From Phycisphaerae bacterium (GTDB taxonomy: Bacteria; Planctomycetota; Phycisphaerae; UBA1845), in assembly GCA_963675765.1 (NCBI GenBank), contig OY776568.1, positions 347,558 through 411,557 on the forward strand: a stretch of DNA of 64,000 nucleotides, written 5' to 3'. Positions 3,458 through 20,454 of the stretch are shown in pieces; position 1 is the stretch's first letter; each line of letters starts with the position of its first letter. The position numbers were made by a program, and so were the translations under genes. A model generated the notes under the pieces. The model worked only from the letters and a program-made list of their open reading frames with translations, was not told the origin of the DNA and did not search any database.

Positions 3458-3955
3458 CTACATGGCCTCTGCCGTTCCTATTTCTGCCAATGCATGTTTT
3501 ACCGTAGACACGACAACATCCTCTATGTCGTATCCTGAACAGTTGCGTAGCGCCGTCTCGCAATGCCTCAGACAAGTACGTTTCTTGCCACGCTCACCAT
3601 ATATCAACGCCAATTCGCCATGCGCCTCAGGGTTCTTCGGTGATATTCTCAACGCTTGCCGAAGACACTTCTCCTTCGATCGAACCTGCACGTAGAGGTC
3701 GGCCAACTGCAACCAAAGAAGCTCCGCAGGACCATCGCCTCGGGCAATCGCTCGACGAATGAATCCTATTGTTCTTGCCTTCATCAAAGCTGCGTCCCGC
3801 CTACGTCCCTTCACCAGGTAGGTGTAAAAATACTCCTCCGCACGCCGACGAGCTTCAACCAAAACAGGACAGCTTGATTCCTTCGCATTCGCTTCGCCCC
3901 TTCGTCTGGCCGCCATAGCACACTCCGACCTACACTGCAGAAAAACCAACCTCAA
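3458..3955 (-). CDS. Small TPR-like helical protein (start uncertain)
   Basis: TPR-like pattern LRQALRISPKNPEAHGELALIY; co-oriented with the island genes. Confidence 0.6.
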   Translation of the reverse strand: MRLVFLQCRSECAMAARRRGEANAKESSCPVLVEARRRAEEYFYTYLVKGRRRDAALMKARTIGFIRRAIARGDGPAELLWLQLADLYVQVRSKEKCLRQALRISPKNPEAHGELALIYGERGKKRTCLRHCETALRNCSGYDIEDVVVSTVKHALAEIGTAEAM

Positions 3956-3960
3956 CTACA

Positions 3961-4425
3961 TCAACGAGCCTTTTGCTCTCGCCGAAAGGCTCGATACGCC
4001 GTAATCGAGTTGATGAAGCACCAAAACCACAAAAGACATGCAATCAGAATCCCCAGGACAAGCTCCATAGGATACTTGCCCATGTTCGAGAAGAACATAT
4101 GCAAGCTGCCGACAAAGCCGACGCCGACAGACAACATAATCACAATCGTTATTGCCATGTACTTCTGTCGAGCAAACATACAACCCAGATACGCCAGAAC
4201 GGCGTACCATGCTGTGGATAATACAACTCCCAAAAACGTCTTCAGGACAGAGAGAGGAATACCACAGGGATTCCTAATCACAATGAATGAAAGAAACAGC
4301 CAGCCGTACACAACGAAGAGGAACATTCCGTTTCTGACAGTCTTACACCTAACCACTACGTTTCCAGATGGCTGTTTTGACATACTAACAGGAACCTCAC
4401 AAAATCGACGATTCATTTGAATCAT
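3961..4425 (-). CDS. Hypothetical multi-pass membrane protein (about 4 TM), possible immunity protein
   Basis: Four hydrophobic segments in 154 aa; located in the Rhs island. Confidence 0.6.
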   Translation of the reverse strand: MIQMNRRFCEVPVSMSKQPSGNVVVRCKTVRNGMFLFVVYGWLFLSFIVIRNPCGIPLSVLKTFLGVVLSTAWYAVLAYLGCMFARQKYMAITIVIMLSVGVGFVGSLHMFFSNMGKYPMELVLGILIACLLWFWCFINSITAYRAFRREQKAR

Positions 4426-4617
4426 ATCGAACCAGGACCGGATCCTTCTCTGCTATTCGGCGACTGTCCAGTGACACGTGACCTTGACTGCTGGAGAACA
4501 GTAGACAAGACGGGTTCCATACGTTCACCAAAACAGGGTTGACAGTTTAATTAGCTACGTCCGCGTTCCGAATTCCGATCGCGAGTTGCCACCCACATCG
4601 GCGTTCGCCTCCTTCCT

Positions 4618-5013
4618 TCAGTATCGCCACGGTCGCCAGATCCTTTCCAGTTCTTCGATACTGTAACCCCTACCGCACTCTGGGCACTTTCCCTGGTCAG
4701 GCAGCCCGCTAAGCAAGTACCCGCACTGCGGACAAACTCGATACTCATCATCAGCCACACGCGCAACAAACTTACGCCTCGCCTTATCATCTAACACGAT
4801 ATGGAGGAACACGAAAACGAATGTAATAACACATAACACCAACCCAATGGCGTCTGAAAACCTCGGCGATGAAGGTTCCAGACCGAACAGAAAGATCGCG
4901 CCGATAACACCCAAACCCGCAGTTGCTATCCATGCAACAGCCAAACGTCGCCTGCGCCAAAACGGTTTTAGTACTACCTGCCCCCTGATGTTCTTGTCGC
5001 TTGGGTCCGGCAT
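4618..5013 (-). CDS. 2-TM membrane protein with C-terminal zinc ribbon
   Basis: Two TM helices followed by CPQCGYLLSGLPDQGKCPECG. Confidence 0.8.
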   Translation of the reverse strand: MPDPSDKNIRGQVVLKPFWRRRRLAVAWIATAGLGVIGAIFLFGLEPSSPRFSDAIGLVLCVITFVFVFLHIVLDDKARRKFVARVADDEYRVCPQCGYLLSGLPDQGKCPECGRGYSIEELERIWRPWRY

Positions 5014-5042
5014 GAGCGTTGACCTTTCTTGATCACTTGTAC

Positions 5043-5136
5043 TATAGCGTCACTAATCCAAGTGTAGCGTCAAACACCCGAAACCTACCGGAGAAAACAG
5101 GCATGCAGCTGCTACACTCGGATAGACCTTGCTCTA
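5043..5136 (+). mobile_element. 94-bp MITE copy 1 (IS630-related)
   Basis: Runs TATAGC...GCTCTA with 26-bp imperfect TIRs (TATAGCGTCACTAATCCAAGTGTAGC / revcomp TAGAGCAAGGTCTATCCGAGTGTAGC). It aligns with copies at 17414, 46489, 46710, 58725 and 59483. Confidence 0.75.
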
Positions 5137-18503: not shown

Positions 18504-18528
18504 TCATCGCCCCTTCACTATCCAGAAA

Positions 18529-19665
18529 CTAGTAGGTTTCCTTTGGCTCGGTGAGCTCATCGACAAGTGTCTTAGTGGAGCCTTGAAGCCCCCCAATAGC
18601 CTCGGGAACGCTGGTCGAACCGTTACCCGTGTTGCTCATGAACGGAAGGTTCGACACGCCCTCCACACCCTGACCAATATACTCCATCTTGTGGGTATTG
18701 GGATTGGCGCACCGAAGAGCAGCCATGATGTCGTATTCTCGCCCAGGATCCCACTGAGGTTGCTTCGCCAACTCGGCCAAGCTACGAAGCCCCAAATAGG
18801 CCTTGACTGCCCCAACGACAACGCCAACAGCAGCGGCTCCGATCGCTACAGTCTTCACTGCCAGCCAAACCACCGCAAGCCATTTACCCTCAGGGTCTAT
18901 ATTCGATGTAGGATTACTCCTGCAATACTCATAGACATTCAACCCACCGCGAATCCCAATCGGATCCCGCTGCAGGAATCGCCCGGTCGACGGATCGTAG
19001 TACCGTGCTCCCGTATGCATAAACGGAAAACCATCAGTAGCACTACGACCCAGAAGGTTGTCCGGCACGCCGTCGCCGCGATAGGTTGTTCCGCCATCAC
19101 CGGAATCGTAATCGTGCTCCTCATAGCCGTGAGCACCCACATAACCATACCGACTGGCCACCCCGCTGTCCAAAGTGACGATCTCACCGAACGCCGTCCG
19201 CACCGAAACCAGCGAACTGGTCACCGTGCCGCCCGTGTCCGTCTTGAACCACGTCGAACCCAGCAGGTCCGTGTGCAGATAGCTCACCGTTCGCGGAGTA
19301 GTACCCAAATCGATCTCGGCCACTCCCGGCAAATAGGCAAACAGCTCATCCGGATCATCATCCGGCTCGTAGTAGTCCACAACAGGGGCGTTGCCAACGT
19401 AATCGGTAAACGTCCTCTCGGCCCCACCACTCGCCGGAGTAAGGCCATCGTCCAACTCCACATCCGCCACTCGCTGGCGATCACTCAGATATGTAAACCT
19501 GCGCCCCCAGTTCCGCTGATACCCTGCGTCAGGCGTATTATAGCAGGACTCGCCCACGCAGAACGCTCCCATGATCAGGAATGGGTAATCCGGCGTGCCC
19601 TGCGAATCGAGACCACTGGTATCTGCGAATCCGATCTTCGTCGGATCGTCATCGTAGATATGTTT
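18529..19665 (-). CDS. Rhs cassette D (orphan; begins inside a divergent lectin-domain allele; hydrophobic tip D)
   Basis: The frame is open from 19665 (KHIYDDDPTKIGFAD...YPFLIMGAFC); the core matches A/B/C; NIDPEG cleavage motif. Confidence 0.88.
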   Translation of the reverse strand, partial: KHIYDDDPTKIGFADTSGLDSQGTPDYPFLIMGAFCVGESCYNTPDAGYQRNWGRRFTYLSDRQRVADVELDDGLTPASGGAERTFTDYVGNAPVVDYYEPDDDPDELFAYLPGVAEIDLGTTPRTVSYLHTDLLGSTWFKTDTGGTVTSSLVSVRTAFGEIVTLDSGVASRYGYVGAHGYEEHDYDSGDGGTTYRGDGVPDNLLGRSATDGFPFMHTGARYYDPSTGRFLQRDPIGIRGGLNVYEYCRSNPTSNIDPEGKWLAVVWLAVKTVAIGAAAVGVVVGAVKAYLGLRSLAELAKQPQWDPGREYDIMAALRCANPNTHKMEYIGQGVEGVSNLPFMSNTGNGSTSVPEAIGGLQGSTKTLVDELTEPKETY

Positions 19666-19686
19666 CTAACTAGGCGGAATGACATT

Positions 19687-19723
19687 GGGTTCCTGCGAGT
19701 TCTACCCAAACGCGCAGGAACCC
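19687..19723. repeat. Hairpin next to the cassette D 5' breakpoint
   Basis: GGGTTCCTGCG / CGCAGGAACCC 11-bp perfect stem. Confidence 0.6.
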
Positions 19724-19800
19724 TTTAGTATTCACAAACTCCCGCCTGAACCACGCATCAGGGCACACTCCGAATTAAGTCCACCCCAACATCCCGTCGA

Positions 19801-20454
19801 TCATTCGTCACTCGAAGCGCTGCCCCCAGGGCCACAAAGACGGATAGCGCGGTGCGACCCTGATTCGATAACGCCGAGGATGTAACTGACCTCCCTTTCG
19901 CCTGCATCCTCATCCAGTAGCTGCAACTCCACGTCCAGGCTCGACACTTCCATCGTTATACAAGAATCCTCGCATGTAGTGAGAACCAACTGTGATCTTT
20001 CCGCCTCATAGTTCAGGCGGTCCAACGTATAAAAACCAATCTTGGACCGATCATGGATACACGCGCTACCCACATCACGAAATCGCAGGATGCCTTTCCG
20101 CAAGGGGATTCGCCACTGCCGTCGTATTATCCCCTTCCGGGCAAGCTTGCGACGTGTGCCAAGCTCATAGACAAACGGAACCTCGACGACGCGGTTTTCC
20201 ACATCATGCTTCACCCAGTCGACGTTGAACAGCTCATCGTGGATCTCACCGCTAATCCGCTCAAGCTCTTCAGAAGTACTTGCGTGTATTATTCGCATAA
20301 TACGACCTGCCATAACTTCGCCCCCTCCCCTTCCCAAAACTAGAGCCCGGCGGACCTTTGCTCCAACCCTCATGCCTTTCCCTAGCCCACTCCTTCTACC
20401 TTCGCAGAGCGATTCGCTTAACTCGTTTTCCACACGACCAACGAGACTTCCCAA
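19801..20454 (-). CDS. Hypothetical protein, probable orphan immunity (true start probably later, e.g. MRIIHAS)
   Basis: Globular-looking region of about 165 aa at the 5' end of the island, with no upstream toxin visible. Confidence 0.55.
   Translation of the reverse strand: MGSLVGRVENELSESLCEGRRSGLGKGMRVGAKVRRALVLGRGGGEVMAGRIMRIIHASTSEELERISGEIHDELFNVDWVKHDVENRVVEVPFVYELGTRRKLARKGIIRRQWRIPLRKGILRFRDVGSACIHDRSKIGFYTLDRLNYEAERSQLVLTTCEDSCITMEVSSLDVELQLLDEDAGEREVSYILGVIESGSHRAIRLCGPGGSASSDE

Follow-up and report, generated by a model that had tools for sequence, protein, structure and literature searches.

The orphan rhs-CT/rhsI cassettes of enterobacteria (Poole et al., 2011, PMC3150448; Koskiniemi et al., 2014, PMC3967940) are the closest known systems to an array of Rhs genes which occupies positions 3458 to 20454 of a 64,000-nucleotide (nt) stretch from the genome of a Phycisphaerae bacterium (contig OY776568.1, positions 347,558 to 411,557; the entire stretch is called the window below). 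The island shares with the enterobacterial orphans a common, 5'-truncated core, a switch at a DPxG motif to unrelated C-terminal tips, a small gene after the tip, and recombination in the core. Unlike in enterobacteria, a main rhs gene exists neither upstream of the array nor elsewhere in the genome, and a type VI secretion system (T6SS) is absent. Further, the tips are short and mostly hydrophobic instead of enzyme-sized, and the array is divided between two islands in opposite orientation. We consider it probable that the island is an orphan array of Rhs C-terminal (Rhs-CT) tips without a parent, followed by a tail of immunity-type genes, and that it now serves mostly for immunity and as a substrate for recombination.

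Other described systems share individual traits with the island. Bacillus WapA is a Sec-dependent toxin of the Rhs/WapA type. Full-length relatives of the island copies resemble this class, to which Streptococcus suis WapA also belongs (PMC12704120), in that they begin with a signal peptide and carry no PAAR, VgrG-binding or TcB-type module. They differ from it by the diderm-type envelope of the host, by a lectin-like domain between shell and core, and by a gene for a secreted TPR-like protein upstream in some loci. Tse5 (RhsP1) of Pseudomonas aeruginosa is a T6SS-delivered Rhs protein with a membrane-depolarizing glycine-zipper tip, and its immunity protein Tsi5 resides in the membrane. The island has in common with this pair an Rhs cocoon with a short, hydrophobic, glycine-rich tip and a small membrane protein as partner; the Tse5 shell, PDB entry 8cp6, matches the island core. 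It differs in that Tse5 travels via a T6SS and that a membrane action of the island tips is suggested by composition only. Tc toxins (TcB-TcC) and teneurins are YD-repeat cocoons with an extra domain which is not part of the shell. The island proteins have this layout as well, and their core stretch finds matches in PDB chains of Rhs proteins, TcC and YenC; the differences are that there is no SpvB/TcB partner and that the extra domain is C-type-lectin-like, not a β-propeller. Orphan immunity arrays are reported from T6SS clusters of Vibrio cholerae (PMC5361080) and, for Rhs, from Serratia (PMC10539506). Like these, window positions 3458-6738 hold a run of immunity-type genes without a cognate toxin; unlike these, the families are zinc-ribbon membrane proteins, TPR proteins and multi-transmembrane proteins, all of them putative immunity proteins. 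The island is neither a T6SS Rhs locus nor a component of a Tc toxin. In the papers searched we found no description of a lectin-like insert in any Rhs protein, nor of a diderm Sec-type Rhs with such an insert or with an upstream TPR-like partner. Together with the mostly short membrane-type tips and the zinc-ribbon partners, these are features which we did not find described.

The genome consists of one contig of 5.45 Mb with an estimated completeness of 96%. Between 7.5 and 19.7 kb of the window four copies of one Rhs core, A through D, are encoded (lengths in amino acids, aa):

Copy A, 7534-10050, minus strand, 838 aa
Copy B, 11583-12596, minus strand, 337 aa
Copy C, 14287-16620, minus strand, 777 aa
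Copy D, 18529-19572 (the open frame reaches 19664), minus strand, 347 aa

Copies A and C are 96.9% identical over 1,899 nt of DNA. The last ~575-680 nt ahead of the tip are common to all four copies with 91-97% DNA identity, far above chance. Every copy matches TIGR03696, the RHS repeat-associated core, with 64-68 bits at a cut-off of 32.5. Uniformly, the core terminates in ...RIDP[NSE]G, and then the tip begins. The tips of A, B, C and D comprise 148, 98, 116 and 118 aa, respectively, and possess no significant similarity to one another. A Pfam search of the four Rhs copies returned no matches. Motifs of the YDxxGR type can be discerned in A and C; the Pfam RHS_repeat family is unmatched in A-D at E ≤ 0.01. 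This family (PF05593) is matched by the N-terminal halves of full-length relatives, i.e., by those halves which are missing from A-D. A preliminary description of this DNA had recognized four copies of the same core, each switching at DPxG to an unrelated tip, and this is borne out by the TIGR03696 matches and the identities. It had interpreted them as orphan Rhs-CT/immunity cassettes, and the anatomy of core fragment, tip and downstream gene agrees. Its count of four cassettes is right for the Rhs copies; the island as such is fuller, with five zinc-ribbon genes and two further immunity-type genes which have no tip.

Full-length relatives were sought in 1.84 billion representative proteins and were found with lengths of 1,426, 1,624 and 1,663 aa. 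Residues 4-750 of copy A align to residues ~670-1390 of these proteins. Accordingly, ~670 N-terminal residues are missing from A, ~725 from C, and many more from B and D; that all copies lack an N-terminus had been stated before and is corroborated by this alignment. Homology between the reading frame of A and the parents extends all the way to the upstream stop codon of A, where the frame meets an internal breakpoint of an rve-type insertion sequence (IS) remnant. Copy A was beheaded at this junction, and the family's delivery half is missing from the genome. Copy C and its twin C2 in the second island begin with an unrelated 26-aa leader, and as leaders B, C and D have either unrelated sequence or internal codons. 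Core fragments without export and initiation signals of their own, a feature of orphans, are thus present.

When four full-length parents, including one from the same genus, were used as tblastn queries, the N-terminal half of the lectin-Rhs family was detected nowhere in the genome; only generic YD-repeat matches of 22-25% to other Rhs families were returned. The absence of a full-length parent, claimed initially for the window, is thereby extended to all 5.45 Mb. A main rhs gene which shares the core is absent from this genome and present in the same-genus relative. Between the lectin-Rhs core and the other Rhs families of the genome there is no DNA homology. The genome contains nine copies of the core, four in the window and five in a second island. 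The N-terminal delivery/plug region is missing from all nine and from the genome, and because of this the nine copies are fragments, not complete Rhs members. The second island is located at genome positions 3,622,340-3,632,800 on the opposite strand, 3.27 Mb away. It holds copies D2, C2, E2, F2 and G2, with four tips beyond those of A-D and with partner genes, and its two borders are an IS630-like fragment and an IS1634-like gene (IS families judged by eye from translated open reading frames, ORFs). The two islands show no symmetry about origin or terminus.

The two islands share an almost identical segment. Window positions 14643-19485, ~4.8 kb, match island 2 in inverted orientation. The duplicate spans the core of C, a zinc-ribbon gene, a TPR gene and tip D, and runs into the core of D. 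In 2,317 unique nt there is a single mismatch; in 2,501 Rhs-homologous nt there are 101. The match stops exactly at the DPxG of C; therefore C and C2 differ in tip and downstream genes. The variant sites among A, C and C2 lie in runs, or tracts. The simplest reading of these patterns is that a segment was duplicated or transferred between the islands very recently, its endpoints lying in core homology, and that gene conversion among the repeated parts followed or accompanied this event. They indicate ongoing recombination of the core, including a switch of tips, inside this genome. Rhs elements owe their name to behavior of this kind. The ratio of nonsynonymous to synonymous substitution rates (dN/dS) among the copies is 0.05-0.38. 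As proof of selection on the truncated proteins we rejected these values. Within the otherwise identical duplicate the differences are confined to the repeated parts and lie in tracts, and therefore were imported by gene conversion from alleles which had diverged earlier. The low dN/dS is divergence inherited from functional alleles.

Across the nine copies there are eight distinct tips, each of which begins after DPxG. In five of the eight, a 19-residue window reaches a mean Kyte-Doolittle hydropathy (KD) of 1.6 or more. Tip A is rich in glycine and has 11 small-xxx-small-xxx-small motifs versus 5.3 in shuffled sequences, and its first ~50-95 residues recur in tips of three related loci (L001, L006, L011). 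In 75 related loci, most of them titled Phycisphaerae or Planctomycetota, the tips are short too (medians ~100-120 aa) and often glycine-zipper-like. A distinct gene follows every tip except that of B. The downstream genes had been described correctly, i.e., a protein with three transmembrane (TM) segments for A, one with a signal peptide and a lipobox-like motif for C, an anchored TPR protein for D, and only IS/repeat fragments for B. Membrane proteins predominate among the partners: 3 TM for A, 1 TM plus TPR for D, a membrane protein for E2, a zinc-ribbon 2-TM protein for F2, and 4 TM for G2. These predicted locations would fit a membrane site of tip action. The island reads as follows:

3458-3955, minus strand, TPR protein of 165 aa, immunity-type, without a tip of its own; weak Pfam TPR matches
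3961-4425, minus strand, 4-TM membrane protein of 154 aa, immunity-type, without a tip of its own; four hydrophobic 19-residue windows
4618-5013, minus strand, zinc-ribbon 2-TM protein of 131 aa, immunity-type; CPQCGY...CPECG; no Pfam family at cut-off
5443-5958, minus strand, zinc-ribbon membrane protein of 171 aa; CLNCGY...CPECG
6166-6738, minus strand, zinc-ribbon membrane protein of 190 aa; CGKCGY...CPECG
7192-7530, minus strand, 3-TM protein of 112 aa, candidate immunity protein for tip A; three hydrophobic windows
7534-7980, minus strand, tip A, 148 aa; starts directly after DPNG
7981-10068, minus strand, body of copy A with ~270 aa of YD repeats, C-type-lectin-like insert (roughly 8611-9198) and Rhs core; 5' end cut off
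10046-10455, plus strand, rve-type IS remnant (3' end of the transposase gene and IS end); abuts the truncated 5' end of A
10510-11091, plus strand, zinc-ribbon 2-TM protein of 193 aa; CSKCDY...CPECG; two TM windows; divergent from A, convergent with B
11132-11465, no strand assigned, fragments of repeated elements at the expected site of an immunity gene for B; 79-96% identical to 4-7 other places in the genome
11583-11879, minus strand, tip B, 98 aa, strongly hydrophobic; top 19-residue KD average 2.44
11880-12482, minus strand, core of copy B, ~200 aa; TIGR03696; 96.5% identical to A
12617-13195, minus strand, ORF of 192 aa which abuts the lipoprotein-like gene; no family match
13196-14260, minus strand, lipoprotein-like protein of 354 aa, candidate immunity protein for tip C; signal peptide, LCSGC; no family match
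14287-14637, minus strand, tip C, 116 aa; proline-rich linker, then a domain of ~80 aa
14638-16620, minus strand, body of copy C with unrelated 26-aa leader, YD repeats, lectin-like insert and core; 5' end cut off
16773-17351, plus strand, zinc-ribbon membrane protein of 192 aa; motif present; divergent from C; identical copy in island 2
17928-18503, minus strand, TM-anchored TPR protein of 191 aa, candidate immunity protein for tip D; TPR_12 with E 4e-20; one TM window
18529-18885, minus strand, tip D, 118 aa, N-terminal segment hydrophobic; top 19-residue KD average 2.13; identical tip in island 2
18886-19647, minus strand, core of copy D and last part of a more divergent lectin-like insert; TIGR03696
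19801-20454, minus strand, ORF of 217 aa at the upstream edge of the island; no family match

Positions 3458-7530 read as a run of six immunity-type genes of which only 7192-7530 still stands after a tip; its start codon is 4 nt downstream of the stop codon of copy A. The two leftmost genes, too, have relatives in immunity position elsewhere, and this justifies the left border which the island had been given at the outset. A homologue of the TPR gene at 3458-3955, 39% identical, directly follows an Rhs tip in a related locus (L036). A paralogue of the 4-TM gene at 3961-4425, 27% identical, is directly downstream of tip G2 in island 2 (genome 3632301-3632759). The zinc-ribbon protein from 4618-5013 is 47% similar to a protein whose gene comes directly after the full-length parent of locus L001. 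The TPR_12 type is also found after a full-length parent, in locus L086. At the IS junction, the remnant at 10046-10455 has 70.6% DNA identity to genome positions 1357879-1358288; the full IS copy, at 1357078-1358100, matches rve_3. In total, about ten immunity-type genes are intact in the island.

The zinc-ribbon membrane proteins carry the motif C-x2-C-x-Y-x-L...C-P-E-C and match no Pfam or NCBIfam family above cut-off. The family has five members in the island. Genome-wide, the motif C-x2-C-x-[YFW]...C-[PS]-E-C is present in 52 ORFs, and 14 of these are within 5 kb of an Rhs core, versus 2.2 expected. A similar picture emerges from the 75 related loci: 34 of the 122 Rhs-core ORFs are followed within 1.5 kb by a zinc-ribbon gene on the same strand, the L001 parent among them. 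Judged from gene neighborhoods, the family is recurrently in a putative immunity position.

About 200 residues between the YD repeats and the core of A, C and C2 have no counterpart in ordinary Rhs proteins. Ten related sequences conserve this insert, and their alignment has 26 invariant columns, a PDD motif included. The conserved pattern, GEPDD...E...N...GFxD, is only suggestive with respect to binding of calcium or sugar. Pfam Lectin_C is not matched by the insert, and a profile search against PDB sequences listed E-selectin and DEC-205 first, at E 0.27 or worse. The sequence profile match was insufficient by itself, and therefore the insert was folded. The model, computed from the alignment, has a mean predicted local distance difference test score (pLDDT) of 52.8, with 70-85 in the model core. 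In a Foldseek comparison with the PDB all of the top 50 matches were C-type-lectin-like domains, with a best E of 1e-4 and target-normalized TM-scores of 0.50-0.66. A C-type-lectin-like fold of the insert is therefore probable as far as the model goes; that the insert binds glycans is a hypothesis.

How would an intact member of this family leave the cell? Searches of the whole genome for TssC, PAAR, Hcp, VgrG and SpvB, with PF05488, TIGR03361, PF05943 and PF05638 as models of the T6SS markers, found none, and the same searches were positive in control genomes. The statement that the window contains no PAAR, VgrG or T6SS genes thus holds genome-wide. A TcB/SpvB partner (PF03534) is absent from the genome too, and the relatives encode the shell as a single chain. 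We also considered a TcC-like split shell, as A reaches DPxG at residue 690, like YenC2. It was rejected: the genome has no SpvB/TcB, and A is homologous to single-chain parents up to the IS junction. The only secretion gene in the window is secY. The delivery route had initially been called not visible. For the window this stands; the relatives do permit an inference.

Genome G001, which according to the kinship table belongs to the same genus, contains locus L001, where a parent of 1,546 aa (in an open frame of 1,550 aa) is followed by a small zinc-ribbon membrane gene, a 594-aa orphan, a partner gene, an IS and further fragments. The tip of this orphan begins like tip A. Outside of the Rhs and zinc-ribbon genes there is no synteny between this locus and the island. 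In a genome of the same family (G003) there are two parents, 1,535 and 1,624 aa long, which are identical at the N-terminus and carry different tips. The architecture of the parents is a Sec-type signal peptide, a cysteine-rich linker, the YD shell, the C-type-lectin-like insert, the core and the tip. The N-termini display a positive stretch, a hydrophobic stretch and a cleavage-type site of small residues; signal peptides were judged by eye (P0003, P0005, P0007 and the parents of L001, L086 and L087). Behind the signal peptide several parents have the cysteine-rich linker and one has dockerin-like repeats. The recommended search for a full-length Rhs and inspection of its N-terminus has thus been carried out: there is none in the genome, and the relatives start with signal peptides, have no PAAR, and in one case carry dockerin-like repeats. 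As to the records, L002 and L003, identical to those of L086 and L087, are titled 'Alphaproteobacteria bacterium'; by kinship they belong to the same family as the window genome and are probably mislabeled.

In three loci a gene for a secreted TPR-like protein of ~520 aa is situated directly upstream of the parent, conserved with 32% identity across genera (E 9e-62). The window genome encodes two homologues of this protein, ~500 aa long and secreted, each directly upstream of a giant Rhs gene with a signal peptide. These giants are from another Rhs family (genome 1,002,305-1,017,287 and 2,972,908-2,988,142; 4,510 and 4,559 aa), and one of them is followed by an orphan array of its own. A class 'T2SS/Sec + RHS' is listed in Table 1 of Zhang et al. 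(2012, PMC3482391). Because of the N-termini of the relatives the lectin-Rhs family is assigned, by predicted features, to this Sec-dependent class of Rhs toxins. In the entire genome there are at least 38 Rhs core motifs of several visibly different motif types, and no T6SS markers.

The orphan array without a parent, which we consider the probable explanation, can be put into a mechanistic frame. Intact members of the family would be exported by the Sec-type signal peptide as a YD-repeat shell, with the C-type-lectin-like domain inserted ahead of the core, and presumably self-cleave at the conserved DPxG motifs. The short tips, mostly with a hydrophobic, glycine-rich segment, probably act on the membrane of the target, and probably are neutralized by membrane-embedded immunity proteins, among them the large zinc-ribbon family. 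Since a parent is absent and the other Rhs families are not homologous to the core in DNA, the tips are undeliverable as they stand. The immunity genes could protect the cell against the corresponding toxins of neighbors, and via the conserved core the nine copies could exchange sequence mutually and with incoming DNA. The locus had been proposed as a planctomycete antagonism system. The planctomycete affiliation is upheld by the related loci and the same-genus genome; an antagonism which can be deployed is not, for want of a resident parent.

Several points weigh against this explanation. The parent may be on a plasmid or an unassembled replicon, given the completeness estimate of 96%. Immunity of the downstream genes is assigned by position only, and the predicted signal peptides rest on reading by eye. 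For tips C and C2 the hydrophobicity is not clear-cut. The majority of the 52 zinc-ribbon genes have no Rhs gene nearby, and the function of the family may be wider. Zinc-ribbon partners and hydrophobic tips are loosely associated (hydrophobic tips make up 47% of those with such a partner and 31% of the rest), and the similarities of tips and zinc-ribbon partners covary weakly (Pearson 0.23, permutation p ~5e-4, Spearman not significant). The lectin-like model is of low overall confidence, as the mean pLDDT indicates, and Pfam Lectin_C is unmatched. Finally, the low dN/dS could reflect selection on the truncated proteins, which an orphan array does not need.

A more far-reaching proposal is possible, although we lean against it at present: Phycisphaerae may operate an Rhs delivery without an injection machine, in which a YD cocoon is exported by Sec, the lectin-like domain embedded in the shell picks the target surface, the conserved secreted TPR-like partner assists in export or surface display, short glycine-rich tips attack the membrane of the target from outside, and a large, previously undescribed family of zinc-ribbon membrane proteins confers the cognate immunity. 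Islands without parents would then be immunity banks, kept ready for recombination by gene conversion.

Salmonella Rhs elements were reported to operate as internal toxin-antitoxin modules (Starsta et al., 2020, PMC7043789). By analogy, promoters within the rhs frame could drive transcription of the orphan tips, which along with the immunity genes would function in addiction or growth control. Tips and partner genes are indeed intact reading frames, hydrophobic tips could enter the membrane of the producer itself, and the partners are membrane proteins. Each of the four copies has sigma-70-like sites at a matching position of the core, e.g., at 8267, 12166, 14924 and 19172. However, the number of promoter-like sites, 15, is not above the 11.9 ± 3.8 of shuffled sequences, a comparison to be read with the caveat that planctomycete promoters may not fit the consensus, and copy B has no partner gene. 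We consider such an internal function unlikely.

That the island is inert debris, i.e., decaying rhs loci broken by IS elements with tips and partners now devoid of function, is improbable as well. Every copy is truncated, the partner gene of B is missing, and IS/repeat fragments lie beside A and B and flank island 2, as one would expect of debris. On the other hand, ~640 codons of the three long copies and all tips are free of stop codons and frameshifts, a weak argument as gene conversion also keeps frames open, and the about ten immunity-type genes are intact.

For Salmonella, orphan tips have been described as a working reservoir (Koskiniemi et al., 2014, PMC3967940). Transferred to this island, homologous recombination would move orphan tips onto a resident full-length rhs gene for subsequent deployment. 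The conserved core with its switch at DPxG, the recombination footprint with differing tips on C and C2, and the same-genus relative with a canonical parent, immunity gene and orphans all would suit such a reservoir. Against it stands the lack of a recipient: the N-terminal half of the family is missing from the genome, and the core has no DNA homology in the other Rhs families. Thus, of the tip reservoir by recombination which the preliminary description had invoked, the recombination is supported by the inter-island duplicate, and the reservoir for a resident gene falls with the missing parent; we regard it as highly unlikely. An assembly artefact, with a single locus mis-assembled into repeated cores, deserves next to no credence, since the copies diverge at 3-9% of positions, each has a tip and flanks different from the others, the borders of the second island are distinct, and the genome is a single contig.

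Combat of planctomycetes with their neighbors is poorly known. This genome lacks T6SS markers, yet has its wealth of Rhs core motifs. As an orphan toxin/immunity array the island is real but largely ordinary; unusual is the type of Rhs family, which combines a secretion signal with a lectin-like domain. The island itself is a non-deployable remnant, valuable as a catalogue and source of tip/partner pairs. It documents very recent core recombination, tip switch included, inside one genome. Together with its relatives it amounts to a testable parts list for T6SS-independent Rhs delivery: signal peptide, lectin-like insert, TPR-like partner, membrane-type tips and zinc-ribbon partners.

Some observations concern the surroundings of the island. 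A tRNA-linked island was considered and rejected, as the window has no tRNA genes, and an Rfam search over window positions 1-24000 gave no match. In metagenomes, sister strains were not detected: an exact degenerate pattern had no match, and a protein scan returned nothing close. A REP/MITE-like (repetitive extragenic palindrome/miniature inverted-repeat transposable element) repeat of ~95 nt, at 5040-5140 and 17412-17494 of the window, occurs at 183 genomic loci with 75-89% identity. Adjacent to the upstream edge, at 20420-21600, is a repeat of ~1.1 kb, G-rich on the minus strand and without Rfam match, of which there are 53 genomic loci with 72-91% identity. Its orientation tracks the replichore, i.e., nearly all copies between 0.03 and 2.82 Mb have one orientation and those at 2.90-5.26 Mb the other. 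Eight copies are within ~9 kb of Rhs cores, and seven of these eight lie upstream of the Rhs array, in the same orientation as it. Just outside the island on its other side, at 2212-3048 on the minus strand, a protein of 278 aa is encoded which ends in PEPASVLLLVCGAVVIVRRR, a stretch with the look of a PEP-CTERM-type sorting signal.

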